A stretch of 64,000 bases of DNA. Source: Gammaproteobacteria bacterium (lineage in GTDB: Bacteria > Pseudomonadota > Gammaproteobacteria > GCA-001735895). Under the pieces are notes generated by a model, which saw nothing but the letters and a program-made list of their open reading frames with translations, was not told the origin of the DNA and did no database searches. How positions within the stretch are numbered: position 1 is the stretch's first letter; every line of letters begins with the position of its first letter. The translations under genes and the position numbers were made by a program. Shown piece by piece: positions 1 through 56,550 of the stretch. The stretch lies in assembly GCA_047639625.1 (NCBI GenBank), contig JBLIOG010000001.1, forward strand, positions 169 to 64,168, read 5' to 3'.

Positions 1-351
1 GATCCGGGGCAATCGTTCCGTCGTGATATCCGCCAGAACGTCTTTGAAGATGCGGTTGCATCGATGCTCGAATTGTTCCCGAACTTCAAACGACTTAAGT
101 TAATGCGCCAATGGGGAGGAACTCTTGATATTGCGCATGATGCTACACCAATCGTCAGTAAAACCGAGATTCCCGGTCTCTTTGTATCGGCAGGCTGGTG
201 GGGTGGTTTTAAAGCCGTTCCTGCTGGGGGTTATACCCTGGCGCATCTGATCGCGAACAACCAACCCCACGATCTCGCCGCTGCATTTACCCTCGAACGT
301 TTTAAACGGCTTGATTTTATACTCGAAGCCGGAACGACCACGGCAACCTGA
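1..351 (+). CDS. soxB: Sarcosine oxidase beta subunit, C-terminal part (5' end outside window)
   Basis: Open frame runs from base 1 with no stop until 351. C-terminal sequence WGGTLDIAHDATPIV...GWWGGFKA is typical of the SoxB/monomeric sarcosine oxidase family. Followed directly by soxD, soxA and soxG. Confidence 0.8.
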   Translation, partial: DPGQSFRRDIRQNVFEDAVASMLELFPNFKRLKLMRQWGGTLDIAHDATPIVSKTEIPGLFVSAGWWGGFKAVPAGGYTLAHLIANNQPHDLAAAFTLERFKRLDFILEAGTTTAT

Positions 352-362: not shown

Positions 363-623
363 ATGTTATTAATTGCATGTCCTTTTTGTGGACCGAGAAA
401 TGAGAGTGAGTTCGTTCACGGTGGGCCTGTAAAACCTCGTCGCCCCGATCAACCCGATAAAATGGGTGATCAGGAATGGGTCGAATACCTAACGGTGCCC
501 CCCAACCCAATTGGACCGGTCGATGAATATTGGTGGCATGTTCGGGGTTGTGGTAAATGGGTAAAAATCAGTCGCGATACACGGACCCACGAAATAATTG
601 CTGCACCTGGAGATGATTCATGA
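363..623 (+). CDS. soxD: Sarcosine oxidase delta subunit
   Basis: 86 aa with a CPFCGPR zinc-ribbon-like N-terminus typical of SoxD. Its end overlaps soxA by 4 bp, consistent with the soxBDAG order. Confidence 0.85.
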   Translation: MLLIACPFCGPRNESEFVHGGPVKPRRPDQPDKMGDQEWVEYLTVPPNPIGPVDEYWWHVRGCGKWVKISRDTRTHEIIAAPGDDS

Positions 624-3559
624 GCGCCCGTTATAGAAACTCAACGGGTGGTAAAATCCAACGTAACGAAGTGATTTCATTTCGTTTTAATGGAAAACGA
701 TACGATGGATTTGCGGGAGACACGCTGGCATCAGCATTACTCGCAAACGGTGTTCATTTAACAGCTCGAAGTTTTAAATATCATCGCCCACGAGGCACCA
801 TCGGCTCAGGCTATGAAGAGCCATCAGCACTGGTTGAACTGACTGGCGACGAATCCTCGGCCAATCAACCCATCACAACCGTTAAAATCAGAACCGGGCT
901 GGAAGCTCGATCCGTCAACTGCTGGCCTTCTCCAGGTTTTGACCTTATGGCCATTAACCAACTTTTTGCGCCCTTAATTCCAGCTGCTTTTTATTACAAA
1001 ACCTTCATGTGGCCAACCTGGCATCTATTCGAGCCATCCATACGCAAAGCAGCAGGACTCGCCGCAGCACCAAAGTCTGAACAACACGAAGGCCATTACG
1101 AAGTCAGGAATGCGCATTGCGACATTCTTGTGGTTGGGGCCGGTCCTGCCGGTCTGATCTCGGCTTTGTTAGCCGCAAAAAATGGATTACGCATCATCCT
1201 GGTGGATGATGGTTCTGAGCCCGGCGGCTCCCTATTAAACGAATCAACTTTAATCAATGGCAAACCGGCGTTCAACTGGATTGACTTAATGGTCGAACAA
1301 CTCGATCAACTCGACAATGTTCAACGGCTATCGAACGCAACAGCCTGGGCCTACCGCGAACAAAATCTGATCATAGTCAACGAGCGTAAACCCCAAACCA
1401 GCGGTATATTTCAACGTGGTTGGCGAGTTCGAGCTTCAAGGGTCATACTCGCTACTGGTGCGATTGAACGTAATCTGGTTTATCCCAACAATGACCGTCC
1501 AGGTATCATGCTGGCATCAGCGGTGCGTAGCTATGTAAATCGTTATGCGGTCTTGCCCGGTAAAAAAGCCGTCATCTTTACCAACAATAATAGTGCTTAT
1601 TCGTTAGCCACAGAACTAGAGTTAGCTGGTATTGAAGTAGTTGCGATAGTGGACAGTCGTTCATCGCCCAATATTGATTCGGATAGTAAAATCACCGTTT
1701 TAAAGAATCACGTCATCGAAACTACAGCTGGGCATAAACGAATTAAACGTGTTTCGATAAAAGACCTTAATAACGGTCAAAAAGCATCAATTGATTGTGA
1801 CCTGCTCTGTGTATCAGGAGGGTGGAATCCCACGCTTCACCTCTTTTCGCAGGCACGCGGCAATCTTCAATGGAATAAAAAACTAGTCTGTTTCACAGCA
1901 GGTTCGGTCGATCAACATTGTCACTGCACTGGATCGGCAGCCGGTTTTTTCAATCTGGACCAGGTCATCGAAAATGCACTGGAAACAACTCAGGAAATCA
2001 TTCAACTGGCAGGGTTTACGACAAAAGAATTGCTGGACCTTCCCGAGATTAGCCCCCAAAGTCGGTATGACATTGCAGCCCTTTGGCAAGTCGAGTGCGA
2101 AAGCAAACTACAGCGTAAAAGTTTTGTCGATATCCAAAATGATGTCACCGTTGCTGATATTCATCTGGCGCTACGCGAAGGTTTCGAGTCGGTAGAACAT
2201 GTCAAACGATATACCACTGCCGGTATGGGAATAGACCAGGGTAAAACCGGCAATCTAAACGTTATCGGTATTATCGCCAATGCCACCAGTGCCCAACCCG
2301 AAGAAATCGGCACAACAACCTTCCGTTCACCTTTTTCACCGATTGAATTCGGTTCTATTGTAGGCAGTCGAGAAGGTGTAGTTTTTCTACCCTATCGCCA
2401 TACGCAGGTAACTCAATGGCATCGCGACAAGGGCGCTACGATCTACGAATCCGGTGCAAGATGGCGACGACCCGGATTTTATCCTCGTGAAGGCGAAGCC
2501 TTTCAACAAACCGTTGACCGCGAAAGTTTGGCAGTTAGAAACCGAGTCGGAGTCTATGACGGAGCGCCTCTTGGTAAATATGAAATCAAAGGTCCGGACG
2601 CCACAAAGTTTCTTAATATGCTCTATACCAATGAATTCGGTAATTTGAAAATTAATCGTGGCCGATACGGATTGATGCTTACCGAAGACGGTAGAATTCT
2701 CGACGATGGCGTTAGTTTTAAACTCGCCGAAAATCATTACCTCATGTCAACGTCGACAGGCTATGCTGATTTAGTTAACCAGCATATGGAATATTTTCTG
2801 CAAGTTCATCGCCCCGAGTGGCAGGTGAAAATATCTACCGTAACCACGCAATGGGCGAACGCAACAATCTGTGGACCAGATGCACGTAAATTATTGGAGG
2901 CAATAGGGACCGATATAGACCTATCAGCTGATCAGTTCCCATTTATGTCGATGCGTAATGGCACGGTGGCAGGTATTCCAGCGCGTATCTGTCGGGTTAG
3001 TTTTACGGGTGAGCTAAGTTTCGAAGTTAATGTCTGGCCCCGATATTTCCGCCAACTATGGGACACCATTATCGATGTTGGAAAATCCTTTGATATTACC
3101 CCGATCGGGTCTGAAGCCAATCATGTCCTTCGAGTCGAAAAAGGGTTTCTGTCATTAGGGCATGAAGCTGATGGCGTTACCGATCCCTATGATCTGGGAA
3201 TGGACTGGATAATGTCTTCCAACAAGGATGACTACATCGGTAAAACCAGTGTCAGGATAAGACGACAGGGGGGTCATCCACGTCGCGAGCTGGTTGGCCT
3301 GATGATTGACGACCCGCAACGCATGGTCGAAGAAAATGCACCGATTACACCGGGAGGAAGACGTGAAGCATCAGAAGGGTTCGTAACCGCCTGTGTCTGG
3401 AGCGTGGTATTAAACCGCAGTATTGCACTCGCACTTCTTACCAACGGCCAAAATCGAATGGGGGGAAAAGTCTATATCCGAATGAAAGAAGATATCGTCA
3501 CAGCCACGGTCACTAAACCCTGCTTTCACGATCCTCAAGGTCAAAGGTTGAGAAGTTGA
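620..3559 (+). CDS. soxA: Sarcosine oxidase alpha subunit
   Basis: 979 aa with an N-terminal NAD/FAD GXGXXG fold (VVGAGPAGL) and a C-terminal GcvT-like aminomethyltransferase domain. Size and gene order match SoxA. Confidence 0.9.
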   Translation: MSARYRNSTGGKIQRNEVISFRFNGKRYDGFAGDTLASALLANGVHLTARSFKYHRPRGTIGSGYEEPSALVELTGDESSANQPITTVKIRTGLEARSVNCWPSPGFDLMAINQLFAPLIPAAFYYKTFMWPTWHLFEPSIRKAAGLAAAPKSEQHEGHYEVRNAHCDILVVGAGPAGLISALLAAKNGLRIILVDDGSEPGGSLLNESTLINGKPAFNWIDLMVEQLDQLDNVQRLSNATAWAYREQNLIIVNERKPQTSGIFQRGWRVRASRVILATGAIERNLVYPNNDRPGIMLASAVRSYVNRYAVLPGKKAVIFTNNNSAYSLATELELAGIEVVAIVDSRSSPNIDSDSKITVLKNHVIETTAGHKRIKRVSIKDLNNGQKASIDCDLLCVSGGWNPTLHLFSQARGNLQWNKKLVCFTAGSVDQHCHCTGSAAGFFNLDQVIENALETTQEIIQLAGFTTKELLDLPEISPQSRYDIAALWQVECESKLQRKSFVDIQNDVTVADIHLALREGFESVEHVKRYTTAGMGIDQGKTGNLNVIGIIANATSAQPEEIGTTTFRSPFSPIEFGSIVGSREGVVFLPYRHTQVTQWHRDKGATIYESGARWRRPGFYPREGEAFQQTVDRESLAVRNRVGVYDGAPLGKYEIKGPDATKFLNMLYTNEFGNLKINRGRYGLMLTEDGRILDDGVSFKLAENHYLMSTSTGYADLVNQHMEYFLQVHRPEWQVKISTVTTQWANATICGPDARKLLEAIGTDIDLSADQFPFMSMRNGTVAGIPARICRVSFTGELSFEVNVWPRYFRQLWDTIIDVGKSFDITPIGSEANHVLRVEKGFLSLGHEADGVTDPYDLGMDWIMSSNKDDYIGKTSVRIRRQGGHPRRELVGLMIDDPQRMVEENAPITPGGRREASEGFVTACVWSVVLNRSIALALLTNGQNRMGGKVYIRMKEDIVTATVTKPCFHDPQGQRLRS

Positions 3560-3560: not shown

Positions 3561-4061
3561 ATGAGTTACGACGTCAATATTCAACGCCAGGGTATATCCA
3601 CCTTAATTGAAATTCAGGGTAAGTCCGATTCGGTTTCCGACTGGATCAGCGGATTATTTAATCATTTACCTGTGTCACCCAATACAGCCGTCAGTAAAGG
3701 TCATTCGTCAATTTATTGGCTCGCACCCGAAAAATGGTTAATTCGGGGGCCAATTGAACTGGAATCGGAGCTTCAGCAATCAGTCCGGTTAGAAACTGCA
3801 CCCATTGATATGAGTATCGTGCTTGTCAGCGATACCCTCACTTTTTTTAGCATTGAAGGCGAAGATGCCGCGCAAATCATGGCTATCGTGAGCCCACTCG
3901 ATACTCATCAAACCCAGTTCCACAAAAATGCCGGTACTTATACCGAAGCTTTCGGATTAAAGTCATTCATATTACGAAGCCGGAATGGTTTCGAAGTAGC
4001 GGTTGAGTCGAGTTTTGCGGATATGTTTGAAACTTATTTTTCTAAAATATGTGCCGATTGA
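3561..4061 (+). CDS. soxG: Sarcosine oxidase gamma subunit
   Basis: 166 aa ORF starting 2 bp after the soxA stop. Position and size fit SoxG. Confidence 0.7.
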   Translation: MSYDVNIQRQGISTLIEIQGKSDSVSDWISGLFNHLPVSPNTAVSKGHSSIYWLAPEKWLIRGPIELESELQQSVRLETAPIDMSIVLVSDTLTFFSIEGEDAAQIMAIVSPLDTHQTQFHKNAGTYTEAFGLKSFILRSRNGFEVAVESSFADMFETYFSKICAD

Positions 4062-5056
4062 GCGATCATCGCCAGGGTTTCTCCACGCTCTATCAAACCT
4101 CGATTGTTATGGGCAAAAATAACACCCGAACAGGGAAAATATAAGGGCACAGAATTACGCTCCGGTTCTTCAATAAAGTGGATAAAACCAGCAGGATCAC
4201 CCGCGTTTACTTTGTCCCCAATATTGAAATTCCGATCAAACAATCCCGCTGACGGTGCCAGATAATTCTGTTCAGGTGCATTAAATTCCACCCACTGTGA
4301 GTCAGAACTCTCTTCGGCAATCGATTGACTGATAATTCCCAAATGATGAAGGCATCGTCTAATAGCGCGCTCGGCAAAGTCTGTCATTGCTGGATCACAA
4401 CCACCACCGCCACCCAACTCAGAAGCGATCATCGATACACCGTGTCGACCCGCCGCTGCATTTACCGAACGATTGTCATTTTGGGCCCCTGCTAACCAAA
4501 CGTATGGCGCCGCAAAAGCCCCGGCTAATGCTTTGTTTCTATGACCCACTTCGGTTGAGTTATCAACGCTGGTTAAAACACAGGGTGCGAAAATTGAGGC
4601 TTTACCACCACTGTGCAAATCGATCACGGCATCGCACTGAGATATGAGTATATCTTCAATAAACTGAGCCAGCATATGCGTCGGTCCTGCATCCATATCC
4701 CCAGGAAACGCCCGATTCATGTTGACTTGATCCAGCGGCGAAACCCGACTTGAAGACATCAACGCAGGTGCGTTCAGGGCTGGAATAATCAGGACTCTAC
4801 CTTTTATCTCATCCAGACTGAGAGTCTGCACAAGACGCATAAGAGCCGCGGGACCTTCGAATTCGTCGCCATGAACTCCTCCAGTTAAAAGCAGGGTTGG
4901 GCCCTCTGCATTAGAAAGACAAATAATGGGAACCGGATAAACGCCTAATGGCCGGCGATTATCCGACCACTTAATTTGCAAATCGCCAACCTGGCGTCCT
5001 TGTTGTTCCAGGTCTATTGTCATTCTAATTCGAGTAGGTGTTGCCGTTTTTATCAT
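4034..5056 (-). CDS. Succinylglutamate desuccinylase/aspartoacylase (AstE/AspA) family deacylase
   Basis: 340 aa carrying the GGVHGDEFEG zinc-binding motif of the AstE/AspA/DoeB family. Its 3' end overlaps soxG convergently. Confidence 0.7.
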   Translation of the reverse strand: MIKTATPTRIRMTIDLEQQGRQVGDLQIKWSDNRRPLGVYPVPIICLSNAEGPTLLLTGGVHGDEFEGPAALMRLVQTLSLDEIKGRVLIIPALNAPALMSSSRVSPLDQVNMNRAFPGDMDAGPTHMLAQFIEDILISQCDAVIDLHSGGKASIFAPCVLTSVDNSTEVGHRNKALAGAFAAPYVWLAGAQNDNRSVNAAAGRHGVSMIASELGGGGGCDPAMTDFAERAIRRCLHHLGIISQSIAEESSDSQWVEFNAPEQNYLAPSAGLFDRNFNIGDKVNAGDPAGFIHFIEEPERNSVPLYFPCSGVIFAHNNRGLIERGETLAMIAQSAHILEK

Positions 5057-5083
5057 TATTTTCTCAATGAATCATTATTTAAC

Positions 5084-5298
5084 AAGGTGATTAGCAAGCA
5101 CACTCAGTTCAAGCAGAGAATTAAACATCAAAGTATTGAATTCAAATGGGTTGTATTGCCTGCTTGTTATACACTTTTCCGCACCTAAATGATCAGTGTA
5201 TTCCATAGTGACTCCTCTATGGGGTACGAAACCATTGAACATGATTACCGCGAGTGACAATTAATTGTATCCTACTGAATTGTGTTGCTAATCACCTT
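5084..5298. repeat. Repeat family 1, copy A: MITE-like element with terminal inverted repeats
   Basis: Inverted repeats AAGGTGATTAGCAAGCACAC (5084-5103) and GTGTTGCTAATCACCTT (5282-5298). The core TTTTCCGCACCYAAATGATSASTRTATTCCATAGTGACTCC is shared with the copies at 13255-13486 and 16146-16503. Encodes the small ORF MEYTDHLGAEKC... on the minus strand with a GGAG Shine-Dalgarno. Confidence 0.6.
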
Positions 5299-5373
5299 TA
5301 ATAATTGAACTTATTATTAATCACAACAAACCATAATATTCCTGGAATTGAGTTACGGTAATTCACATCATGT

Positions 5374-6516
5374 GTGATATGGTACTTTAACCCTCTTACA
5401 GACACCATGCACCGAAAAATCACCTCCATGTCAGCTTTACGCCCCAAAAAAAGTATTGAGAAAATTAAGGCACATATGCTGTTGGCAGAAACTGATCAAT
5501 ATCCAGCCCCGCGAATTTTGCTGAATTCGAACGAAAGTGCTTTTGGCCCTTCAGTTAACGCTGTCAATGCAGCGACTGCTGCGGCTGCCGATTTATTTCG
5601 ATATCTCGAAAATCCGGCATCCCGTTTAGCCCCTGCTCTGGCTCAACGTTATCAGGTTGATCAAAAACGATTAACGGTCGGCAACGGATCAGATGATTTA
5701 CTGGCACGGTTAGCAAGGGTCTATCTCGAGCCCGGAACTGAAATGATCCGCAGCAAAAATGGTTATCTCAAGGCACCAAACTATGCCTTTGCCAACGGAG
5801 CTGAGCCGATTTCGGTCGAAGACGACGACTTGAAGCCTTCGGTTGATAACATTCTGGCCGCTGTTACTGACAAAACCCGAATGGTCTATCTGGCAAATCC
5901 TGAGAACCCTGCAGGAACCTATTTGAGCGGTTCTGAAATCAGACGATTGCACCAGTCGCTTCCAGGGGAAGTTTTACTCGTACTCGACTGCGCCTATGAA
6001 GAATACGTCGATGCCGAAGATTATGAGTCAGGTCAGCTGTTAGCCAGTATCGCCGACAATGTCGTAATGACTCGAACCTTCTCAAAGATTCACGGACTCG
6101 CGGGCGCCCGGGTTGGCTGGATGCTGGCCGCACCCGAAATCATCGACCTTGTTAATCGCATCGGCTTAACCTTTCCGTTGGCGAGTTGTTCAGTGGCCGC
6201 CGCATTAGCAGCATTGAAAGATAAACATCACCAGAAAACTGTGTTTGAAATAAACCGAAAACTACGCCAGCAATTTTCAGAAAAAATGACCCATGCTGGA
6301 TTAAAGGTTTACCCAAGCCAAACCAATTTCCAGCTTTTGAAATTTGAAAACCCAGACAAAACCGCAATCGGGTGTGAAGACTATTTATTAAAGCGAGGCA
6401 TTGTTATTCGGCGATTGGCTTCTCCGGCTTATCAAGACTGCATTCGGGTAACCATTGGCCTCGAATCACAAATGAAGATAGCCACCGAAGCCATAACGAG
6501 TTATCTCAATGCATAG
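5374..6516 (+). CDS. Class I/II PLP aminotransferase (histidinol-phosphate aminotransferase-like)
   Basis: LNSNESAFGPS N-terminal motif and overall HisC-family architecture. The true start may be an internal Met (MHRK at 5407 or MSAL at 5428). Confidence 0.8.
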   Translation: MIWYFNPLTDTMHRKITSMSALRPKKSIEKIKAHMLLAETDQYPAPRILLNSNESAFGPSVNAVNAATAAAADLFRYLENPASRLAPALAQRYQVDQKRLTVGNGSDDLLARLARVYLEPGTEMIRSKNGYLKAPNYAFANGAEPISVEDDDLKPSVDNILAAVTDKTRMVYLANPENPAGTYLSGSEIRRLHQSLPGEVLLVLDCAYEEYVDAEDYESGQLLASIADNVVMTRTFSKIHGLAGARVGWMLAAPEIIDLVNRIGLTFPLASCSVAAALAALKDKHHQKTVFEINRKLRQQFSEKMTHAGLKVYPSQTNFQLLKFENPDKTAIGCEDYLLKRGIVIRRLASPAYQDCIRVTIGLESQMKIATEAITSYLNA

Positions 6517-6518
6517 CC

Positions 6519-7052
6519 ATGGACAGCACTATGCCTTCTGCTGAAATCTTGTATCCCTCCGGACCTGGCATTATTGCCGAAATCAAAAAGGCAGGCGTTG
6601 AGTTCGTTATCTCTGTCCCTGATATTGTAACCAGCGAAGGTTTACTCTGGCCCCTGTCGAAAGATAATGAATTAAATCTGGTCCGTGTTTGCAAAGAAGA
6701 TGAAGGTGTCTCGATTTGTGGTGCCATGTCCTATAACAACACACGGGCCGTGTTACTCATGCAGCAAACGGGTCTGATGGATTCGCTAAACGCAATTCGA
6801 GCCATAGGAATGGACTATCAACTCCCTATATGCATGATGGTTGGCCTACAGGGTAAAGAACCCGAGCGTAAACCCGCAGAGTCAAATGCCTACGGGGTTT
6901 GGATCATAGAGCCGGTACTAAAAGCGATGGGAATAGAATATCGTCTCATTGAAGAACCCGATGATGTTAATCACATTGCTCAAGATATCGACCGTGCCTA
7001 TCGAAATTCTTCGGTATTCTGCTTCTTAATAGGGCGGTCACCAACACCATGA
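6519..7052 (+). CDS. comD: TPP-dependent decarboxylase alpha subunit (sulfopyruvate/phosphonopyruvate decarboxylase ComD-like)
   Basis: 177 aa with a TPP pyrimidine-binding N-domain. It is 3 bp from the aminotransferase and overlaps the beta subunit by 4 bp, the split arrangement typical of ComDE. Confidence 0.65.
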   Translation: MDSTMPSAEILYPSGPGIIAEIKKAGVEFVISVPDIVTSEGLLWPLSKDNELNLVRVCKEDEGVSICGAMSYNNTRAVLLMQQTGLMDSLNAIRAIGMDYQLPICMMVGLQGKEPERKPAESNAYGVWIIEPVLKAMGIEYRLIEEPDDVNHIAQDIDRAYRNSSVFCFLIGRSPTP

Positions 7053-7612
7053 GACGCGATCATGCTCTGGAAATACTGAAACATCATGTTAGTGATGAAA
7101 TCGTCGTTGCGGTTTATCAAACATTGTTCGACTGGATGGCTATTAATCCACGCGATTTAAATTATGTCGCCACCGGCGCCATGGGTCAGGCTTCTTCGCA
7201 TGGTTTAGGGCTTGCTCTGGCTAATCCTCAAAAAGAGGTTCTGGTTTTTGACGGCGATGGAAGTTTACTGATGAACCTGGGTTCGCTGGTCAGTGTCGCC
7301 AATGCCAAACCTGCTAACTTTCATCACTTTGTATTTGTTAATCGGGTTTATGAAGTGAATGGCGCGCACCCGATACCCGGTGCTGAATCGGTTGATTTTT
7401 CAGCCATGGCATCTGCTGCTGGCTACAAACAATCGGTTTCTTTCAGTAATATCGAAACTTTCGAATCAAACATCAGCGACTTCCTCGCGACACCCGGGCC
7501 ATCATTTGCAGCATTGTATATAGAAGCCGGGGATCCCTATCCGAGGGACTACGATTATATTCACAGCGCCGAGGCGAGGGATAAGTTTAGGCTGGCACTT
7601 GCATCGAGCTGA
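7049..7612 (+). CDS. comE: TPP-dependent decarboxylase beta subunit (ComE-like)
   Basis: 187 aa with the TPP-binding motif GDGSLLMNLGSLVSV...N (GDG-X24-N). Confidence 0.7.
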   Translation: MRRDHALEILKHHVSDEIVVAVYQTLFDWMAINPRDLNYVATGAMGQASSHGLGLALANPQKEVLVFDGDGSLLMNLGSLVSVANAKPANFHHFVFVNRVYEVNGAHPIPGAESVDFSAMASAAGYKQSVSFSNIETFESNISDFLATPGPSFAALYIEAGDPYPRDYDYIHSAEARDKFRLALASS

Positions 7613-8489
7613 ATTCTGTCTCGACCAACTCCAGAAATTCGTTCGCGACCGCAGTCATTGATTTTTGACGCGACCAGATTAAACAGCCGTTAAAACCAAT
7701 ATTGAGTGAAAAAGGTGCTGAAGATACTTCTTCTCCCGACCCGAATGAAGACCCCATCGAGACAATAATTGAAACGCCCAGCCCCTGTGCGACTAATCGA
7801 CAGATGGCATCGGTTGTTCGGGCTTCATACTTCAGGCTACGATCAACACTCGATTTTTTAAAAATATCATCCACTTCAAACCGAAACTGTGAATCGGGCA
7901 TATAGGAAACAAAACTTTCACCGGCAAGATCTTCCGGAGTAACCACGGCTTTACCTTCAAGTCGATGGCCAGGCGGGAAAACACAAATCGATTCTGTGTT
8001 CGTTAAAGGGTGACTGTTAACAGACGGATTGGCCAGGTTCGCCGGCGCTATGCCGAAATCAAAATTTTGCGAGACCATCCATTCGATTGCAACGTCGGTA
8101 GACTGGATTTCCAGTGATATCATTGCGTCTGGCTGCTTCTCGGAGAATTTACGAATGAGCTGTGGCGCGATTAACGTTGAAAATGCAGGTGTTGCGATCA
8201 ATCGCAATTGCGCATGTTTGAAATTCTTGATGGCGGTCGCGGTATGTTTGATTTGCTCAAGGCCACTCAGAGCCCGTCGTACTTCTTCAACCAGTAATAA
8301 CGCTTCCGGGGTCGCTTTCAAATTTCGACCGGAACGGGTAAACAATCGAAAACCAACCTGGCTCTCCAAATCCGATATCAAACGGCTGACGGCCGGCTGC
8401 GAAATATTCAGCATTCGAGCTGATTCGGTAACCGTACCGGTCTGTACGACCGTTTTGAAGGCGTCAATCTGGCGAAAAGTAATTTTCAA
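7587..8489 (-). CDS. LysR-family transcriptional regulator
   Basis: N-terminal HTH FRQIDAFKTVVQTGTVTESARMLNISQPAVSRLISDLE plus a C-terminal substrate-binding domain. Confidence 0.85.
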   Translation of the reverse strand: MKITFRQIDAFKTVVQTGTVTESARMLNISQPAVSRLISDLESQVGFRLFTRSGRNLKATPEALLLVEEVRRALSGLEQIKHTATAIKNFKHAQLRLIATPAFSTLIAPQLIRKFSEKQPDAMISLEIQSTDVAIEWMVSQNFDFGIAPANLANPSVNSHPLTNTESICVFPPGHRLEGKAVVTPEDLAGESFVSYMPDSQFRFEVDDIFKKSSVDRSLKYEARTTDAICRLVAQGLGVSIIVSMGSSFGSGEEVSSAPFSLNIGFNGCLIWSRQKSMTAVANEFLELVETEFSSMQVPA

Positions 8490-8501: not shown

Positions 8502-9584
8502 TCACTCGTTCGATTTCTCAGCTTTAATCCGAGCGGCCAGTTTCTTACGAAACATTTTTGAACCAATATCAAGCCGTAAATCCAGATTACCCGAACGGTT
8601 TTTGGACATACCCCGATGAACCGCTTCAAGGATAACCCGGTCTTCTTCAAATGCACCGCGCGCACCTTCATTCAGTTTTGCACGCGTTACTTCGTTATCG
8701 CCATCGGTATTGTAATTCTGAAACCAGTGGTACCGGGTATTTTCATGATCAATTGGCGTTATGAAGTGGTAGGACCGCATTCGATAACTGCCATCGGGTA
8801 AATCATTATCATTTCCGCCATGTCCTGATGGAGCATAACTACTCATATTAATCGCGATCGACGGCATAACCGCCTCGTAATACTGAAGACGATCGACCTT
8901 ACCTGAAAACGGCAACATGTCAGCATAGTAGGGCGGTGGATCAATATCATTAATCCAACGTGATACCAACACACCCGTATCGGTATCCTCGATTTTCAGC
9001 GCCACATCGTCGGTACCGGCAGAGGCAAACGAAGACTGATGAACCCATGCGACATGCGAAGGGTCGAGTAAATTATCGACCAGGTACAGATAATGGCATC
9101 GACATTCGATCATGCCACCATCGGTTAAACCCCAATGAGGATTATCGTAATCAGGCACGGATAAAATGTGGTTTTCATCGGCCAACTCAGGATCACCCAT
9201 CCAGATCCAGATTAGCCTGTACTTTTCGATGACCGGATATTGTCGAACCCAGGCATTGCTGGGGATTTTGCACTGTGTTGGTGATTCTACACATTTCCCT
9301 TTATGATCAAACTGCATACCGTGATAACCACAATGGACGACATCTTCAATCAGCGTTCCCATCGAAAGCGGTAATTTCCGATGCGGGCAGGCATCTTCCA
9401 GCGCAACCGGAAAGCCGGTGGAATGCCGGTACAGAAGAATATCTTCACCAAGTAACCGGACGGATTGCAGGTTCTCACCTAATGCATCAGATCGAATCGC
9501 AACATACCAGGCGTTTTCGAGAAAAAGGGAATCCCGGTTAATATAATTTGGACTGATACGCGCCATAACACTCTCGCAGGACAT
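8502..9584 (-). CDS. Rieske [2Fe-2S] non-heme iron oxygenase alpha subunit, VanA-like
   Basis: Rieske motif CPHRKLPL...CGYHGMQF and a VanA-type mononuclear-iron region (DNLLDPSHVAWVH). 360 aa. Confidence 0.8.
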   Translation of the reverse strand: MSCESVMARISPNYINRDSLFLENAWYVAIRSDALGENLQSVRLLGEDILLYRHSTGFPVALEDACPHRKLPLSMGTLIEDVVHCGYHGMQFDHKGKCVESPTQCKIPSNAWVRQYPVIEKYRLIWIWMGDPELADENHILSVPDYDNPHWGLTDGGMIECRCHYLYLVDNLLDPSHVAWVHQSSFASAGTDDVALKIEDTDTGVLVSRWINDIDPPPYYADMLPFSGKVDRLQYYEAVMPSIAINMSSYAPSGHGGNDNDLPDGSYRMRSYHFITPIDHENTRYHWFQNYNTDGDNEVTRAKLNEGARGAFEEDRVILEAVHRGMSKNRSGNLDLRLDIGSKMFRKKLAARIKAEKSNE

Positions 9585-9726: not shown

Positions 9727-10587
9727 GTGTCTTTAGACACCAGAACTGATTCGTACGATTTAGAAAAGCGTCGACGTCCTGTCGAAGTTTTCAGCCTGCC
9801 TCGTTTCTTTCAAATCGTTAGCCAAATCGGTTGGGCTATTCTGACCTTTGCAATCATCGGCTGGTTAATATGGAAAGGTGCATTGGCAATGGAGTACAAC
9901 TGGCAGTGGTATCGTGTCAGCCCCTTCTTTTATCGAATCATCGATGACGAACTAATCTTTGGACCACTTTACTGGGGGCTGATACAGACCCTGAAACTAG
10001 CCTCTGTTGCCGGAATTCTGGCGATCATAATCGGGTTCTTAACCGCCTTTGCGCGTATGTCGAATTCACGCGCTGGTGGTACTATTGCAACCTGGTATCT
10101 CGAAGCAATACGTAATACCCCGCTGATTGTTCAGTTATTTTTATTCTATTTTGTACTTGCGCCCATTTTAGGCATAGACCGATTCTGGTCCGGTGTGCTG
10201 TGTCTTGCATTCTTTGAAGGCTCTTTCGCCGCAGAGATTATTCGGGGTGGAATTCAAGGTGTTGATCGAGGTCAATTTGAAGCCGGTGATGCGATCGGGC
10301 TAACCACCTTTAACAAATACTGGCACATCGTCATACCGCAATCCATGCCTTTAATTTTACCACCCTTGACCGGTTTGCTGATTTCCCTGATTAAACATTC
10401 AGCCATCGTCAGTGTCATTGCCGTTTCCGAGCTGACAACCACAGGTTTGAATTTGATTTCAGATACCTTTATGGCATTCGAAATCTGGTTCATTATTGCA
10501 GGCATCTATCTAGTACTGACCATTTCGCTTTCTATCGGCGTCGGTCAACTGGAAAAGAAGCTCAACGTTACCCGAACGAGTAAATAA
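9727..10587 (+). CDS. Polar amino-acid ABC transporter permease (His/Glu/Gln/Arg/opine family)
   Basis: GTG start with an AAGGAGG Shine-Dalgarno. EAIRNTPLIVQLFLFYF permease signature and multiple TM segments. Confidence 0.85.
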   Translation: MSLDTRTDSYDLEKRRRPVEVFSLPRFFQIVSQIGWAILTFAIIGWLIWKGALAMEYNWQWYRVSPFFYRIIDDELIFGPLYWGLIQTLKLASVAGILAIIIGFLTAFARMSNSRAGGTIATWYLEAIRNTPLIVQLFLFYFVLAPILGIDRFWSGVLCLAFFEGSFAAEIIRGGIQGVDRGQFEAGDAIGLTTFNKYWHIVIPQSMPLILPPLTGLLISLIKHSAIVSVIAVSELTTTGLNLISDTFMAFEIWFIIAGIYLVLTISLSIGVGQLEKKLNVTRTSK

Positions 10588-13254: not shown

Positions 13255-13486
13255 CTTGTTTGTTTGTTTTTTGACCCAGCTTCTGAGTTGTATTGGCTGT
13301 CTGTTAAACATTTTTCCGCACCCAAATGATGACTGTATTCCATAGTGACTCCCTCCATGGGGTATGTCTCACTTTTGAAGCCCCAAAAGTAAGCAAAATG
13401 GCTCACACCATCGAGAGCGGCCTACGGCTTCCCGTCAAGAGAGTTGCTATAAATTGAGGCCTGCTGAATTATGTTGCTCATCAACA
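13255..13486. repeat. Repeat family 1, copy B
   Basis: Shares the core CATTTTTCCGCACCCAAATGATGACTGTATTCCATAGTGACTCCCTCCATGGGGTA with copies A and C. Small ORF MEYSHHLGAEKCLTDSQYN... on the minus strand. The right arm (CTGCTGAATTATGTTGCTCATCAAC) overlaps the last codons of the amidase gene. Confidence 0.5.
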
Positions 13487-14784
13487 TTATTCATCACCCC
13501 GACCCTTAACTGACCCTCTATCCACTGCGCCGCTGCCAGTAATTTGTCGTCCTGATTAATCGCGCCTACCAACTGAACTGAAAGGGGTAGTCCATTTGGC
13601 CCCTGTCCAAACGGAACCGAAATACAGGGCACCTGTAACAAATTCCAGGCCCGACTGAAAAGAGGATCACCCGTTGCCCCCAGCCCTGCAGGTGCTTCAC
13701 CCGGAGCTGCTGGCGTCAAAATAACATCGGCTTCAAGAAACATAGTTTGTAATATTCTGTTTGCTCTATCTCTCGCCAGGCAGCCATCAACATAGTCTGC
13801 ACGCGAAACTTCCAGACCGGTTTCGAACAAGTCTCGAAACTGAGGGCTAATTTCATCTCGATAATGGTTGTACTCATATACGCGAGACCTCGCCACTTCA
13901 AACGCCATTACTGTTTTTTGATGCTCAGTTAATTCTAGAAATGATTCAGGGCAGGCAAGTTCACCGGTCACAGCGCCCGCATTTGAGAGTTGTTTCATTG
14001 CCCTCTGGCAGACATCACGCATTTCCATCGAACCTTCATTCCAATGGGGACCACGAAACAACGATATTCGTAATGGTCGGTTTTCATGATCAATCGCATC
14101 GGCAGGCTGGCTTTTACACAACACAGAACGTGCGAGTTCAAAGTCTTCAATTTGTCTGGCCAAAAAACCCAGAGTATCCAGACTTGGTGATAAAGACATG
14201 ATCCCCTGTAGATCAAAACTTCCATGACTGGCCTTATATCCTGGAATACCACAATAAGCAGCCGGCCGGATTAACGACGCAGCGGTCTGTGAGCCGAATG
14301 CAAACGGTAGCATACAATCCGCAACTGCCGCTGCTGAACCGCTGGATGATCCACCAGGCGTATGTTCCAGCTTATTCGGATTCGCTGTTTTTCCCGGTTT
14401 GAAATAGGCAAACTCGGTGGTCACTGTTTTACCGACCAGAATGGCACCCGCCTGCAGGAATAATTCGACACAACTGGCATTACGCCCAGCACTATATCCC
14501 TTGTAAAACTCTGTGCCCCATTCAGTCGTGAATCGCTCGGTGTCGATGATATCTTTCGCGGCGAAAGGTATCCCGTGAAGTGCTCCCGTAATTTCCTTTC
14601 GATCAGCCCGTCGGGCAGATTCCAACGCGGCCTCTTCATCAATATCATTAAATGCACCGACATCAATTTCCCGCTGCTGGACGCGATCAAGACAATCTGT
14701 CATCACTGCTTCGGCAGAAATTTCTCGGGTAGAAATTTTCCGCGCTAGTTCGGCCATCCCTAATTCATTCAGTTTTGTTTTCAC
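13447..14784 (-). CDS. Amidase (amidase-signature family, GatA-like)
   Basis: 445 aa with the AS motif GGSSSGSAAAVA and the catalytic Ser-cisSer-Lys region. Confidence 0.85.
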   Translation of the reverse strand: MKTKLNELGMAELARKISTREISAEAVMTDCLDRVQQREIDVGAFNDIDEEAALESARRADRKEITGALHGIPFAAKDIIDTERFTTEWGTEFYKGYSAGRNASCVELFLQAGAILVGKTVTTEFAYFKPGKTANPNKLEHTPGGSSSGSAAAVADCMLPFAFGSQTAASLIRPAAYCGIPGYKASHGSFDLQGIMSLSPSLDTLGFLARQIEDFELARSVLCKSQPADAIDHENRPLRISLFRGPHWNEGSMEMRDVCQRAMKQLSNAGAVTGELACPESFLELTEHQKTVMAFEVARSRVYEYNHYRDEISPQFRDLFETGLEVSRADYVDGCLARDRANRILQTMFLEADVILTPAAPGEAPAGLGATGDPLFSRAWNLLQVPCISVPFGQGPNGLPLSVQLVGAINQDDKLLAAAQWIEGQLRVGVMNNVDEQHNSAGLNL

Positions 14785-14787: not shown

Positions 14788-15993
14788 TTAATGACCATCC
14801 AGTTCGGCAATCGCCGCTTCAAAAACGGTAGCCGGCATATCGTAAATACCTCCACCCAAACGGCCTACAGCCCCCTCGTTATCGAGTATGCCCAATGCGA
14901 TCACCGGTCCACGCCCATAAGCGACTACAGATCGAGCAGATATCCCCAGTCGACAATTAAGTGATCCAAACGCCGGATGCTGACCCATCAATAGCGACTG
15001 CGTTCTAAGGTCAAAATCTTCGGGTAAAAATTCGCCAAGCGCATCGAGTTGTCCGGGAGATAAACGAATAGCCATGGCACCAAGACCCAACCCTTCCACT
15101 ACCGCACTATCTCCAATCGCTGGCAAGCCTCGACTGACAGGCAAATCGACATCAAATCGACCAACCGGAGCGGTTGCACTAGAAGAAAACCAATGTCCGG
15201 GGAGAGCTGAAATCTGAATCCCCGTTTCAACACCGTTACCACCCGCAGCAATAACAAAACTGGAGCCGCCAACCCCGGCAGCACGGGTCATAATGCATTT
15301 GCTGGCAGCCATCCACAAATTAAGAAACAGGCTGGGGGACCGTCCTATAAAATCACGGGTTTTTTCATCAAACTGCTTACCGGGTATCGCCTGTTCAACT
15401 TTCGCCATTAATAATTTTGTGGCATGCGGCGTTCGGCCATGACAGTCATCACCTTCTGCTAACCCGGCAGCGGCTAATGGCAACATTTCGTATGAACTTG
15501 TTAGTGCTTCGTTCAATAAATCAGCAAAGAAACTGTTCAACCAACGTATATGATTCAATACTGATTCAGATCTTAAACCCAATCTGAGAGACGGTGCGCC
15601 TCCTCCATTAATAGGAGCATATATTTTGATATCAGATTGATTTTCATCAATAACCCGATGAAGTGGCATAGAGGCACTGACGACGGCCGCCAGCGGCGTA
15701 ACGACTGAATGATCCTGAGCCGGTTTAAGTTGAATTTCTCCAGCCTTTATCATCGATTCGGCCTGGCCGAAGTTCTTTGCCAAACCTTCAAATACTGCCG
15801 CCACGCAGGCCGAATTTAAGATCGGCATAGAAATAGCATCAATAGATTTAAACGCTGGCCCAGCATGTAATAAAACATGTTCGGGGATCTTGAAAGCATG
15901 AGCACCCGATTCGATTCCATCCCAAACCGGATCGGCTAATAGAGCCTGTTCGAATGAAAGTTGATCGGCATTATCTAAAACAGAATTACTCAT
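14788..15993 (-). CDS. Uncharacterized protein, DUF1116/YlbE-like (co-operonic with amidase)
   Basis: 401 aa. Motifs LLHAGP, VVSASMPL and IGDSAVVEGLGLGAMAI resemble the E. coli YlbE family as I recall it. Stop lies 3 bp from the amidase start. Confidence 0.45.
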   Translation of the reverse strand: MSNSVLDNADQLSFEQALLADPVWDGIESGAHAFKIPEHVLLHAGPAFKSIDAISMPILNSACVAAVFEGLAKNFGQAESMIKAGEIQLKPAQDHSVVTPLAAVVSASMPLHRVIDENQSDIKIYAPINGGGAPSLRLGLRSESVLNHIRWLNSFFADLLNEALTSSYEMLPLAAAGLAEGDDCHGRTPHATKLLMAKVEQAIPGKQFDEKTRDFIGRSPSLFLNLWMAASKCIMTRAAGVGGSSFVIAAGGNGVETGIQISALPGHWFSSSATAPVGRFDVDLPVSRGLPAIGDSAVVEGLGLGAMAIRLSPGQLDALGEFLPEDFDLRTQSLLMGQHPAFGSLNCRLGISARSVVAYGRGPVIALGILDNEGAVGRLGGGIYDMPATVFEAAIAELDGH

Positions 15994-16636: not shown

Positions 16637-18706
16637 ATGAGTGAACGAGATCCACGATACGACGTTCTGTTTGAACCCGTTAGAATTGGCCCAGTTACGG
16701 CCCCTAATCGATTTTACCAGGTGCCACACTGTACTGGCCTTGGCTGGCTTCGACCTCGCACCGTTGCTCAGGTCCGCGGAATGAAAGCCGAGGGCGGTTG
16801 GGGTGTTGTCTGCACCGAATACTGTTCGATTCATCCGGCTTCGGATGACTTGCCTCATCCTTATGCGTCGCTCTGGGATGACGGTGACATCAAGGCACAC
16901 CGGCTAATGACCGACGCCGTACATGAACATGGTTCGCTGGCTGGCGCAGAGCTCTGGGTTGGCGGCGCACGATCAACTAATCTGTTTACTAATGAAGTTT
17001 CGATGGATGTCGCCCATATGCCGAATTCAATTGGCATTCCGTATCAGACCCGGGCGATGGATCGATCCGATATTCGTGAATTACGGCGCTGGCATCGAAA
17101 TGCTGCCTTGCGGGCAAAAGCAGCAGGCTTTGATATCGTTTATGTCTACGCCACGCATCACTATCTTTTATCTCACTTTTTATCCGCTGAGACCAATACT
17201 CGAACCGATGAATATGGCGGTTCACTTGAAAACAGGGTTCGACTCATTCGTGAATTAATCGAAGAAACAAAAGATGCGGTGGGCGATACCTGTGCTGTTG
17301 CGGTCAGATTTTCTGCCGACCAAACCAAAAATGGGAGCGGTGATCCGATTATTGGTGAACACCGTGACATGATTGAAATGCTGGCTGAACTCCCTGACCT
17401 GTGGGATATCAATATTCAGGACTACTCGCGTGAGATGGGCGTATCCCGGTTTATCAAGGAAGCTTCGCTCGAAGCCTATATGTCTTACGTCAAAACGATC
17501 ACCACAAAACCTGTCGTATCAGTTGGGCGGTTTACCTCTCCGGATACCATGATCTCGCAGATCAACCGCGGAATTGTTGATTTTATAGGTGCTGCAAGGC
17601 CATCCATCGCTGATCCTTTCTTGCCTAAAAAAATAAAAGAAGGTCGACTCGATGAAATTCGAGAATGTATCGGCTGCAATAACTGTTATGTTGGTGACAG
17701 TAAAGGAACACCTTTTCGTTGCACCCAAAACCCGACTATTGGAGAAGAGTGGCGACGTGGCTGGCACCCTGAAAAGATAGCCGCAAAAGGATCTGACTCT
17801 ACAGTTCTGGTTGTGGGTGCCGGACCTGCAGGACTCGAAGCAACTCGAGCACTTGGATTACGGGGATATCAGGTTTTACTCGCCGAAGCGGAACGTGAAC
17901 TTGGAGGACGAGTAACGCGTGAAGCGAAGTTTCCCGGACTAAGCGAATGGGCCCGGGTTCGCGATTATCGAGTACAGCAAATTCAACGCATGCCCAATGT
18001 AGACATTTATCTCGAAAATCGAATGACGTTAGAAGATGTGCTGGCAATGGAGGCCGATCATATCGCGATTGCGACGGGATCGACCTGGCTCAGAGACGGT
18101 AAAGGTTTGCATCACACGGTGGCCATTGAAAATTTTGGCCCTGCGGATCAAATCTTTTCACCTGACGATATTATGGCAGGGCGATTGCCAACAGGATCCA
18201 CCGTTATATTCGATGATGACCACTATTATCTGGCCAGTGTTATTGCCGAAGTTTTGCGTGAGAAAAACATCCCGGTTACTTTGGTAACGCCCGAAGTCAA
18301 AGTATCGGCCTGGTCGGCCAATACCTCTGAGCAGTATCAAATTCACAGAAGACTCGCCGATGTTGGTGTAGAGATTGTCACTGGACACGGCTTAGTTTCA
18401 TTTAATGGCTCACAGGCCGAGATCCAATGTGTTTATACCGATTCACCCAAAACAATTAAAGCTGAAGCCGTTGTCACGGTTACCATGCGAAATCCGAATG
18501 ATGCTTTGTTTCGGTCGCTGAAAAATCATTACGCAACCAATGCCGATACTGGGCCAATTTCACTCAGTCGAATAGGCGACTGCGAGGCACCCTCAATCAT
18601 TGCTGGCAATGTTTTTTCCGGTCATAGATATGCCCAGGAACTCGATGCCGACATTGATGTTGATAAGCGCATTAAATTCGACCGGATATTTTTTAACGAT
18701 GACTGA
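16637..18706 (+). CDS. Trimethylamine/dimethylamine/histamine dehydrogenase-family flavoprotein (OYE-like TIM barrel + 4Fe-4S + ADP-binding domain)
   Basis: 689 aa. N-terminus MSERDPRYDVLFEPVRIGPVTAPNRFYQVPHCTGLG closely matches the TMADH N-terminus, including the Cys for 6-S-cysteinyl-FMN. Also the CIGCNNC Fe-S motif and VVGAGPAGLEA. Confidence 0.8.
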   Translation: MSERDPRYDVLFEPVRIGPVTAPNRFYQVPHCTGLGWLRPRTVAQVRGMKAEGGWGVVCTEYCSIHPASDDLPHPYASLWDDGDIKAHRLMTDAVHEHGSLAGAELWVGGARSTNLFTNEVSMDVAHMPNSIGIPYQTRAMDRSDIRELRRWHRNAALRAKAAGFDIVYVYATHHYLLSHFLSAETNTRTDEYGGSLENRVRLIRELIEETKDAVGDTCAVAVRFSADQTKNGSGDPIIGEHRDMIEMLAELPDLWDINIQDYSREMGVSRFIKEASLEAYMSYVKTITTKPVVSVGRFTSPDTMISQINRGIVDFIGAARPSIADPFLPKKIKEGRLDEIRECIGCNNCYVGDSKGTPFRCTQNPTIGEEWRRGWHPEKIAAKGSDSTVLVVGAGPAGLEATRALGLRGYQVLLAEAERELGGRVTREAKFPGLSEWARVRDYRVQQIQRMPNVDIYLENRMTLEDVLAMEADHIAIATGSTWLRDGKGLHHTVAIENFGPADQIFSPDDIMAGRLPTGSTVIFDDDHYYLASVIAEVLREKNIPVTLVTPEVKVSAWSANTSEQYQIHRRLADVGVEIVTGHGLVSFNGSQAEIQCVYTDSPKTIKAEAVVTVTMRNPNDALFRSLKNHYATNADTGPISLSRIGDCEAPSIIAGNVFSGHRYAQELDADIDVDKRIKFDRIFFNDD

Positions 18707-25816: not shown

Positions 25817-25860
25817 TGAGTCTCAGCTACTGTAAAACTACCATTGAGGGTTGGAAATCG

Positions 25861-27156: not shown

Positions 27157-27161
27157 ATAAA

Positions 27162-28697: not shown

Positions 28698-28733
28698 CTC
28701 TGACCCTTTTAATTGAGTAGTAGTTGAAAATCT

Positions 28734-30065: not shown

Positions 30066-30069
30066 CGCG

Positions 30070-32490: not shown

Positions 32491-32493
32491 AAT

Positions 32494-33714: not shown

Positions 33715-33728
33715 GTCAAAGACTGCAA

Positions 33729-49257: not shown

Positions 49258-49267
49258 ATTATTGACC

Positions 49268-51237: not shown

Positions 51238-51315
51238 TTCTATTAAGTCGTATGATTAATCAGAGTCCTATCGGCCTGGCCGGGCCTACCCAGGCCGATA
51301 GGGTTTTAATGATGG

Positions 51316-56526: not shown

Positions 56527-56550
56527 GACCTTGTTGTACATCCGGCAACC

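Follow-up and report, generated by a model that had tools for sequence, protein, structure and literature searches.

Which compound is broken down by the products of a gene group in which a HisC-like aminotransferase gene is followed by the genes of a two-subunit thiamin diphosphate (TPP)-dependent decarboxylase? The group lies at positions 4034..7612 of a 64,000-nucleotide stretch of contig JBLIOG010000001.1 from a Gammaproteobacteria bacterium (hereafter the window, which means the whole stretch analysed), together with a divergent AstE/AspA-family deacylase gene and next to genes for a sarcosine oxidase-like (Sox-like) complex. An earlier note on this DNA had proposed that a cysteate-like or N-acylated sulfonate is catabolized here via sulfopyruvate and sulfoacetaldehyde; this proposal is not supported by our analysis. 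We tentatively regard the aminotransferase (AT) and the decarboxylase subunits (D-alpha and D-beta) as an Ehrlich-type module that would first transaminate and then decarboxylate, located in a conserved marine gene island that would serve the uptake and catabolism of an N-methylated compound of the amino-acid type. The likeliest substrate class, named with the same caution, is a histidine-type or aromatic amino-acid betaine. The central features are the following.

4034..5056, minus strand: DoeB-like zinc deacylase of the AstE/AspA family (N-acyl-L-amino-acid amidohydrolase type); PF24827, E = 9e-33; DoeB model TIGR02994, 213.8 bits against a cut-off of 402.7
5057..5406, no strand: divergent intergenic region of 350 bp between the deacylase gene and the AT operon, presumed regulatory from its sequence
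5407..6516, plus strand: AT, HisC-family pyridoxal 5′-phosphate aminotransferase; PF00155 (Aminotran_1_2), E = 4.5e-44; HisC model TIGR01141, 248.1 bits against 276.55
6519..7052, plus strand: D-alpha, TPP decarboxylase alpha (PYR-domain) subunit, 177 aa; ComD model TIGR03845, 92.9 bits against 147.95; PDB RhiE 9iz3_A, E = 4.5e-4
7049..7612, plus strand: D-beta, TPP decarboxylase beta (PP-domain) subunit, 187 aa; PF02775 (TPP_enzyme_C), E = 1.5e-14; Ppd model TIGR03297, 107.3 bits against 312.5; ComE model TIGR03846, 104.6 bits against 221.5

The base evidence in the window consists of the open reading frame (ORF) listing and of profile and sequence matches to Pfam, NCBIfam and the PDB. All four genes are found with strong domain matches at these coordinates, which confirms the gene identities given in the earlier note. 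The AT gene probably starts at the ATG at 5407 and not at the GTG at 5374; the gene caller used on the source contig also picked 5407. Only 2 nt lie between the AT stop codon (6514-6516) and the ATG of D-alpha at 6519, and the D-alpha and D-beta genes overlap through an ATGA at 7049-7052. This arrangement makes tight translational coupling of the three genes plausible, as had been suggested. A promoter and terminator scan, including the intergenic region 5057..5406, gave no signal above chance. A 43-aa ORF (window 5075-5206, minus strand) lies in this divergent region and is called on L001-L003, three near-identical contigs of which L001 is the source contig and extends upstream of the window.

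The two decarboxylase subunits have the architecture of a ComDE-type heterodimer. Both pairs consist of two small subunits, an alpha PYR subunit of about 170-180 aa and a beta PP subunit of about 185 aa, which are encoded by adjacent overlapping genes. The catalytic glutamate of the alpha subunit is intact (in KEDEG), as is the TPP motif GDGS...N of the beta subunit aligned to RhiF, which follows the GDG-X(n)-N pattern. The scores of both subunits, however, fall below the equivalog cut-offs of the ComD, ComE and Ppd models listed above; with the Ppd model D-alpha reaches 38.6 bits. D-alpha has no Pfam match, and its NCBIfam matches are limited to the ComD and Ppd models. The best solved-structure match of D-beta is RhiF with 60.7 bits.

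Labelled reference sequences for identity values and for a neighbour-joining tree were obtained by tblastn against annotated plasmids. D-alpha and D-beta share 18% and 32% identity, respectively, with the genuine roseobacter ComDE of Leisingera. D-beta is also 32% identical to Roseomonas AepY; the values for D-alpha are 18-19%. The D-alpha subunit is 31% identical to an uncharacterised Cupriavidus protein. In the tree the D-beta family of the window, with 58-77% internal identity, has as its sister a set of Cupriavidus and Pseudorhizobium proteins that are uncharacterised. A separate group joins ComE, AepY and RhiF, and the window clade lies outside it. The earlier note had left the placement between the ComDE and Ppd clades to phylogeny; the separate clade found here partly counts against its proposal. 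Furthermore, the family motifs VVAVYQ..FDW, YEVNGAHP and RDYxYIHS stand where ComE, AepY and RhiF share the STGGQ region.

ComDE enzymes participate in coenzyme M synthesis and in bacterial catabolism of 2,3-dihydroxypropane-1-sulfonate (DHPS) and sulfolactate. The Leisingera comDE genes are found in this known setting, with genes for a tripartite ATP-independent periplasmic transporter, an hpsN-like protein, a short-chain dehydrogenase/reductase, an alcohol dehydrogenase and a 2-hydroxy-acid oxidase, whereas the window family has no sulfolactate, DHPS or coenzyme M gene context. Similarly, AepY/Ppd and the heterodimeric RhiEF (PDB 9iz3) share the fold and the cofactor motif with D-beta, but the identity is about 32-35%. 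The Roseomonas aepY gene adjoins the phosphoenolpyruvate (PEP) mutase gene aepX, while no pepM gene is present in the window or in the related loci described below; Ppd is moreover a biosynthetic enzyme, whereas the window cluster is catabolic. The split family is not confined to sulfo- or phosphonopyruvate, as follows from LumK/LumL, a split thiamin-dependent decarboxylase that acts on a quinoxaline carboxylate in riboflavin catabolism. LumK/LumL resembles the window pair in serving the catabolism of an N-heteroaromatic compound; it differs in its quinoxaline carboxylic acid substrate and in having no aminotransferase partner. D-beta is about 30% identical to PDB 9u8q, which is presumably LumL. 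Other uncharacterised clades of the split family adjoin aldehyde dehydrogenase genes in (acid-)catabolic clusters, and the orthologues in Ruegeria conchae are named by PGAP just ‘decarboxylase’ and ‘TPP-dependent enzyme’, not ComDE. Judged by its sequence, the D-alpha/D-beta pair is neither ComDE nor Ppd, and represents a new branch of the split-TPP decarboxylase family.

The AT likewise scores below the cut-off of the HisC model and retains the HisC active site. It keeps the E. coli HisC residues K214, D184, Y187, N157, R222, R322, R335, Y55, D85 and Y110, with Y20 replaced by H. All of these retained residues except Y55 are among those found invariant across the AT family. Asp85, in the motif GSDD, is common to the AT and to HisC structures and is replaced in the HisC-like phenylalanine aminotransferase 4r2n. 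The retention of D85 points to a polar, imidazole-like or cationic side chain of the substrate, and argues against a plain phenyl group as well as against an anionic sulfonate; the acidic HisC-type pocket would be expected to take an anionic side chain poorly. In the related loci the AT gene is always linked to the decarboxylase genes and never to his genes.

These loci were identified by a scan of species-representative genomes, which returned 51 of them, and all their ORFs were clustered into families. The counts that follow cover 56 sequences, that is, the 51 genome loci, L001-L004 and the window. The AT is present in 50 loci, D-beta in 47 and D-alpha in 43, followed by a DUF1116 protein (35), a LysR regulator (33), the deacylase (29), the family c6 of about 210 aa with two tandem paralogues (29), the 451-aa Rieske protein c7 (28), SoxA (26), the ATP-binding cassette (ABC) transporter (26), an amidase (25), an aldehyde dehydrogenase (ALDH; 23) and a VanA_C-type Rieske protein (16). 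The carriers are sponge symbionts (Poriferihabitaceae, Arenicellales and sponge Rhodobacteraceae), roseobacters (Ruegeria, Aliiroseovarius, Aliisedimentitalea and others) and members of SAR116. The canonical order, annotated in full on a plasmid of R. conchae, is amidase, DUF1116, c6, c6, c7, ALDH, deacylase / AT, D-alpha, D-beta / LysR / ABC / XRE-cupin regulator / soxBDAG. The ALDH gene adjoins the deacylase gene, and its conservation backs the chemical logic of the earlier note, in which an amino acid is converted into a 2-oxo acid and then into an aldehyde.

Several variants of this order exist. In Paracoccaceae, soxBDAG-AT-D-alpha-D-beta are arranged as a single co-directional block, together with a Rieske gene and c24 (AhpD-like) and next to the ABC transporter genes. 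The SAR116 variant consists of c21, soxBDAG, Rieske, deacylase, AT-D, LysR and ABC. The variant of sponge-associated Rhodobacteraceae has no Sox, ABC, deacylase or ALDH genes; it has gained genes for an acyl-CoA dehydrogenase, a GDSL hydrolase and a BisC-like molybdenum S/N-oxide reductase. A cytoplasmic BisC/TorA-family molybdopterin S-/N-oxide reductase gene adjoins the AT-D operon in nine loci (L027, L030, L033, L038, L040-L042, L044 and L046; for example L042:11292-13613), with the GDSL hydrolase gene in between in most of them. Its presence may mean that the substrate occurs in oxidised form, as an S-oxide or N-oxide.

The window contains the following further genes of the cluster.

1..351, plus strand: 3′ end of a soxB-like gene (beta subunit of the Sox-like demethylase) whose start lies upstream of the window; ORF 64-351 matches the C-terminal end of PF01266 (DAO)
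363..623, plus strand: soxD-like delta subunit; PF04267 (SoxD), E = 4e-29
620..3559, plus strand: soxA-like alpha subunit with folate-binding GCV_T domain; TIGR01372, 1175 bits against a cut-off of 1164; GCV_T, SO_alpha_A3 and Fer2_4 domains
3561..4061, plus strand: soxG-like gamma subunit, divergent in sequence; PF04268, E = 7.5e-8; TIGR01375, 52 bits against 144
7587..8489, minus strand: LysR-type regulator, convergent with D-beta and overlapping it by 26 nt; HTH_1 and LysR_substrate domains; PRK11013, 225.9 bits against 288
8502..9584, minus strand: Rieske/VanA_C-type monooxygenase, presumed demethylase; Rieske and VanA_C domains; best PDB match DdmC, 134 bits
9727..13184, plus strand: polar amino-acid ABC transporter; permease 9727-10587, binding protein 10609-11421, permease 11510-12415, ATPase ~12429-13184
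13447..14784, minus strand: amidase-signature amidase; PF01425, E = 1.7e-63; best NCBIfam match indoleacetamide hydrolase, 209 bits against 532
14788..15993, minus strand: stand-alone DUF1116/AllG-like protein; PF06545, E = 9e-56
16637..18706, plus strand: two-domain oxidoreductase of the old yellow enzyme (OYE)-FMN/FAD type; Oxidored_FMN and Pyr_redox_2 domains; carried by only 2 loci, so that its membership in the cluster is tentative

The Sox-like genes lie directly upstream in the window, where the 3′ end of soxG overlaps the deacylase gene by 28 nt. The four subunits follow the order B-D-A-G, and the alpha subunit carries the folate-binding domain, as in SoxBDAG; the complete soxB-like gene on L001, a JGI metagenome contig of a gammaproteobacterial metagenome-assembled genome, encodes 417 aa. 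Only SoxA passes its family cut-off, by a small difference; SoxB (494 against 529 bits) and SoxG remain below theirs. Divergent paralogues of the Sox type can be dehydrogenases of N-methylglutamate or of other N-methyl amino acids. The Rieske enzyme of the window is closest to dicamba O-demethylase DdmC and not to Stc2, c7 resembles phthalate-family oxygenases, and both Rieske types resemble aromatic-acid oxygenases or demethylases. The OYE-FMN/FAD class of oxidoreductases includes tertiary-amine demethylases. An MttB-family gene (non-pyrrolysine, trimethylamine methyltransferase-like) directly follows D-beta in two loci (L020:10841-12262 and L021:10884-12296), and further members are found at or near the beta subunit gene (L046:14268-15815, L018 and L056:25874-27391), which suggests a quaternary-amine substrate.

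On a plasmid of Paracoccus seriniphilus (NZ_CP067131, 184312-200910; L068 and L069), orthologues of the ABC, Rieske, c24 (AhpD-like), ferredoxin, RidA and deacylase genes are accompanied by c21-GST-soxBDAG-purU, with purU after soxG, and by the gene for an OYE/FAD-like enzyme. The combination of a Sox-like complex with a folate-binding alpha subunit, Rieske, OYE/FAD and MttB enzymes and PurU is a signature of stepwise N-demethylation. Established models of such demethylation are the glycine betaine and stachydrine pathways, in which GbcAB-DgcAB-SoxBDAG and Stc2/StcD likewise bring together a Rieske enzyme, an OYE/FAD demethylase and a folate-dependent Sox-type heterotetramer that act in series on N-methyl groups. 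The window system differs from these in its divergent Sox subunits, in a Rieske enzyme that resembles DdmC/VanA and not Stc2, and in that the demethylated product would be passed to a dedicated AT and decarboxylase. The position of soxBDAG directly before AT-D in one operon implies that Sox may expose the primary amine used by the AT. The order suggested in the earlier note, with deacylation first, could not be established; some loci contain the Sox-AT-D operon without a deacylase gene.

The AstE_AspA catalytic domain of the deacylase is full-length (PF24827 profile positions 1-192 of 192). Its PDB matches are 3cdx (195 bits) and DoeB 6twl (159 bits), and it is 37% identical to a DoeB named by PGAP. 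The score with the DoeB model is well below the cut-off, and the ectoine hydrolase DoeA is not found in the cluster. In P. seriniphilus the deacylase gene occurs with no AT-D genes nearby, so that the deacylase does not depend on AT-D.

The binding protein of the ABC transporter shares 54-57% identity with its nearest solved homologue, the Desulfonauticus protein PDB 9e2b, which was crystallised with L-tryptophan. It keeps the carboxylate-binding residues Arg77, Ser72 and Thr121 and has the invariant aromatic residues F14, W17 and W52. In LAO and HisJ the side-chain cation is bound by Asp11, a residue that this protein has lost. The predicted model of the protein is poor, with a predicted local distance difference test (pLDDT) value of 61.5. 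The replacement of D161 by S does not imply a ligand without a primary amine, as 9e2b has the same change and binds L-tryptophan.

The gene identities, the intact catalytic motifs, the separation from ComDE and Ppd in the tree and the conserved linkage are direct results of the analysis; from them we infer the substrate and the following order of steps. The compound would be imported by the ABC transporter, and methyl groups would be taken off by the Rieske monooxygenase, or in other genomes by the MttB-type methyltransferase, possibly with the help of the OYE/FAD enzyme. The last methyl group would be removed by the folate-dependent Sox-like complex, which would expose the primary alpha-amino group. 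The HisC-like AT would then turn the amino acid into a 2-oxo acid, and the heterodimeric TPP enzyme would decarboxylate it to an aldehyde one carbon shorter. In most related genomes this aldehyde would be oxidised to the acid by the adjacent ALDH, for which the window has no gene. The phthalate-family Rieske protein and ferredoxin probably degrade the acid further, along with the amidase, the DUF1116 protein and the AspA/DoeB-like deacylase. By cleaving an N-acyl intermediate, for example an N-formyl one, the deacylase would free a standard amino acid. With a histidine-type or other aromatic amino-acid betaine such as hercynine or N-methylhistidines as the substrate, the imidazole- or aryl-pyruvate would be converted via the acetaldehyde into the acetate, followed by ring opening as in the imidazoleacetate (hin) route of Pseudomonas. 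The same logic of aminotransferase, TPP-dependent 2-oxo-acid decarboxylase and ALDH is found in the arginine transaminase route (AruH/AruI/KauB), the Ehrlich routes and the indolepyruvate routes. The decarboxylases of these routes are single-chain enzymes of the acetolactate synthase/pyruvate decarboxylase type of about 550 aa, whereas here a ComDE-type heterodimer is combined with a HisC-like aminotransferase. Among other known systems considered, the published homarine hom operon has a different gene set, and guanidine/urea carboxylase, creatinine and ectoine readings were dropped, the defining genes DUF1989, hydantoinase and DoeA being absent.

The choice of a histidine-type or aromatic substrate rests on L-tryptophan in 9e2b, the HisC pocket of the AT, the Rieske likenesses, the hutU, hutH and hutI genes (all above the NCBIfam cut-offs) found directly after the ABC transporter genes in SAR116 (L039:15162-19638 and L048:15265-19810), and the parallel with the hin route. 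The latter comprises a monooxygenase, a RidA-type deaminase, an amidase, a formylaspartate deformylase and a LysR regulator. The cluster oxygenase, RidA (in two clusters), the amidase, the N-acyl-Asp-type deacylase and LysR parallel HinF, HinL, HinH, HinG and HinK, respectively, and, as in the hin system (HinC, D, F, L, H, G and K), an aldehyde dehydrogenase would make an aryl-acetate on which an oxygenase then acts. The oxygenase here consists of a Rieske protein, ferredoxin and two uncharacterised proteins, whereas hin has an FAD monooxygenase; entry here would be by transamination and decarboxylation of an amino acid, whereas in hin an amine is deaminated. The parallel is one of gene types and presumed order of steps; HinG presumably belongs to the AstE/AspA family.

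The c6 pairs are tandem paralogues with 35-40% identity, always flanked by the DUF1116 gene on one side and the gene for the Rieske protein c7 on the other (for example L017:3033-3698 and L017:3665-4303, both on the minus strand, and L056:8860-10118 in R. conchae). No sequence match to the family was found in Pfam, NCBIfam or the PDB. Its AlphaFold model is confident (pLDDT 89.5, all-beta) but has no Foldseek match in the PDB, the best hit having E = 0.015 and a template-modelling (TM) score below 0.31, and all 3175 metagenome homologues are labelled ‘hypothetical’. A stand-alone DUF1116 gene lies on a plasmid of Azospirillum brasilense (L066:2428-10200) by genes for an amidase, HpxZ, a xanthine-dehydrogenase-type molybdenum hydroxylase and an SRPBCC protein, and in Rhodococcus ruber (L067) another is located beside formate dehydrogenase and malate synthase genes. 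The occurrence of DUF1116 elsewhere with amidase, HpxZ and molybdenum hydroxylase is an N-heterocycle or oxamate context. This hints that the amidase and the DUF1116 protein handle oxamate- or oxalurate-like fragments of N-heterocycles. A more specific version of the betaine reading, which we consider doubtful, is that the island encodes an undescribed global pathway for hercynine, an ergothioneine-related or a hypaphorine-like betaine. It would combine stepwise demethylation with the first ComDE-type heterodimer known to act on an imidazole- or aryl-pyruvate, whose product would be degraded by a Rieske enzyme and two copies of the c6 family.

Several points weigh against the betaine reading. 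If demethylation gave plain histidine, the Hut pathway would suffice, and only a modified ring would then explain the need for AT-D. Adjacency to hut genes was observed once, in the SAR116 lineage. L-tryptophan in 9e2b is a crystal ligand and may differ from the physiological one. Two additional arginines, invariant in the binding protein (CRRGATPC), could mean an anionic group in the ligand. The transporter, Rieske, Sox and deacylase genes of P. seriniphilus occur without AT-D nearby, which indicates that an ‘upper’ part of the pathway can exist alone. The genes for ALDH, c6 and c7 are all missing from the window, and no published description of this cluster was found in the searchable literature. 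Finally, the ALDH is closest to betaine-aldehyde and aminobutyraldehyde dehydrogenases, a likeness that fits any cationic aldehyde, for example one derived from lysine, ornithine or 2,4-diaminobutyrate.

This last point leads to the strongest alternative, a possible though rather unlikely route for a cationic aliphatic compound. Its substrate would be a basic amino acid that carries methyl or acyl groups; examples are N-epsilon-trimethyllysine, 2,4-diaminobutyrate in methylated or acetylated form, and derivatives of ornithine or arginine. From it, AT and the decarboxylase would yield an omega-amino or trimethylammonio aldehyde, which an enzyme like betaine-aldehyde dehydrogenase would convert into, for example, delta-valerobetaine, gamma-butyrobetaine or beta-alanine, comparable with AruH/AruI/KauB. 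Besides the ALDH likeness, this is consistent with the transporter, which is of the lysine/arginine/ornithine and ectoine type, with DoeB as the best match of the deacylase, and with the regulator, which is likest the PRK11013 LysR model. Carnitine- and butyrobetaine-type CoA genes and an MttB gene adjoin the R. conchae cluster, and the acidic D85 pocket of the AT would suit a cationic side chain as well. The binding protein, however, has lost Asp11 and gained arginines, and its nearest solved relative binds tryptophan. Both Rieske enzymes resemble enzymes with aromatic substrates, and such a route leaves the amidase, DUF1116, c6 and c7 without a role and the hut adjacency without an explanation.

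The sulfonate route is improbable. In it, cysteate, maybe N-methylated or N-acylated, would be converted by the AT into 3-sulfopyruvate and by a ComDE-type enzyme into sulfoacetaldehyde, which would be followed by sulfoacetate formation or by desulfonation, for example by a TauD-like or Rieske oxygenase. It is in line with the best named NCBIfam models for both subunits, which are ComD for alpha and ComE/Ppd for beta. The extra arginines of the binding protein could bind a sulfonate, and SAR11_1068, a distant relative of this protein, was crystallised with sulfobetaine. A TauD-family dioxygenase gene and an EamA-family transporter gene are located just upstream of the window ahead of soxB (L001:100-1973). 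The TauD-like protein scores 123 bits against the cut-off of 313 for taurine dioxygenase, and neither gene is kept with the cluster in other loci. The ComD and ComE scores far below the cut-offs, the low identity to the roseobacter enzymes and the separate clade argue against this route, as does the fact that real comDE genes sit with hpsN-type and slcD-type genes. Profile searches of the 64-kb window found no gene for Xsc, PepM or an aldehyde dehydrogenase, in agreement with the earlier note as far as Xsc and PepM are concerned. The genes comABC, slcD, hpsNOP, xsc, pta, those for sulfite export, dehydrogenation or other sulfite handling, and cuyA-type genes are missing from the window and from the recurrent neighbours, and no sulfonate, sulfite or phosphonate genes recur across the 51 loci. 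The recurring partners are N-demethylation enzymes instead, and the Asp-Asp side-chain pocket of the AT is unfavourable for an anionic side chain.

Even less probable is a role in signal production, in which AT, decarboxylase and dehydrogenase would form an indole-3-pyruvate-type route to indoleacetate or phenylacetate from algal or sponge tryptophan or phenylalanine. The tryptophan-binding relative of the binding protein, the best match of the amidase (indoleacetamide hydrolase) and the resemblance of the ALDH to phenylacetaldehyde dehydrogenases would fit such a route. The linkage to Sox, Rieske and MttB demethylases and the downstream oxygenase and amidase genes, however, point to catabolism; the AT keeps the HisC residue Asp85 that is missing in the phenylalanine aminotransferase, and the amidase scores far below the indoleacetamide hydrolase cut-off. 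The least credible alternative is a conversion of phosphonoalanine (or an N-methylated form) via phosphonopyruvate and phosphonoacetaldehyde into phosphonoacetate by a PhnY-like dehydrogenase: Ppd is the top NCBIfam match and RhiF the best PDB match of D-beta, but the Ppd score is one third of the cut-off, D-beta lies outside the AepY/RhiF clade, the ALDH is like betaine-aldehyde dehydrogenase, and no pepM, phnA, phnX, phnW or phnZ gene occurs in any locus.

Elsewhere in the window, a second catabolic block (24923-34991, minus strand) combines genes for a PhzF-like isomerase, an FAD oxidoreductase and a PehA-like sulfatase with that of a bona fide dimethylsulfoniopropionate lyase, DddP, which scores 655 bits (cut-off 600). 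The block also encodes an enzyme like dimethylglycine dehydrogenase, a class-V aminotransferase and an uncharacterised FAD protein, and a LysR regulator gene lies beside it (35123-35986). The stretch 40001-46000 has a low GC content (0.38-0.42 against ~0.46 elsewhere) and carries genes for an SbmA/BacA-like transporter (41488-42768) and an FAD oxidoreductase (44367-45788). The genes at 47156-52629 (minus strand), for a ugp-like glycerophosphodiester phosphodiesterase and an ABC transporter of the sugar type, and those at 55372-59475 (plus strand), for another ABC transporter that is of the polyamine or iron type, represent ordinary nutrient uptake.

The gene group in the window is best filed as part of an uncharacterised but widespread marine catabolic island, and its decarboxylase as a new functional variant of the split-TPP family. 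In ocean and sponge metagenomes the binding protein, the decarboxylase and c6 each have thousands of close homologues (5445 homologous clusters for the binding protein, 3021 for D-beta and 3175 for c6). Together with the carriers, which include SAR116, roseobacters and dominant sponge symbionts, this implies that the island probably handles a common nitrogen-rich marine metabolite. Automatic pipelines wrongly label the decarboxylase proteins as sulfopyruvate or phosphonopyruvate decarboxylases. Identification of the substrate would correct inferences on sulfonate and phosphonate cycling that are drawn from such labels, and would add a fourth function to the small family of split-TPP decarboxylases. 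It would also give a function to DUF1116 and to c6, a family without a known fold.

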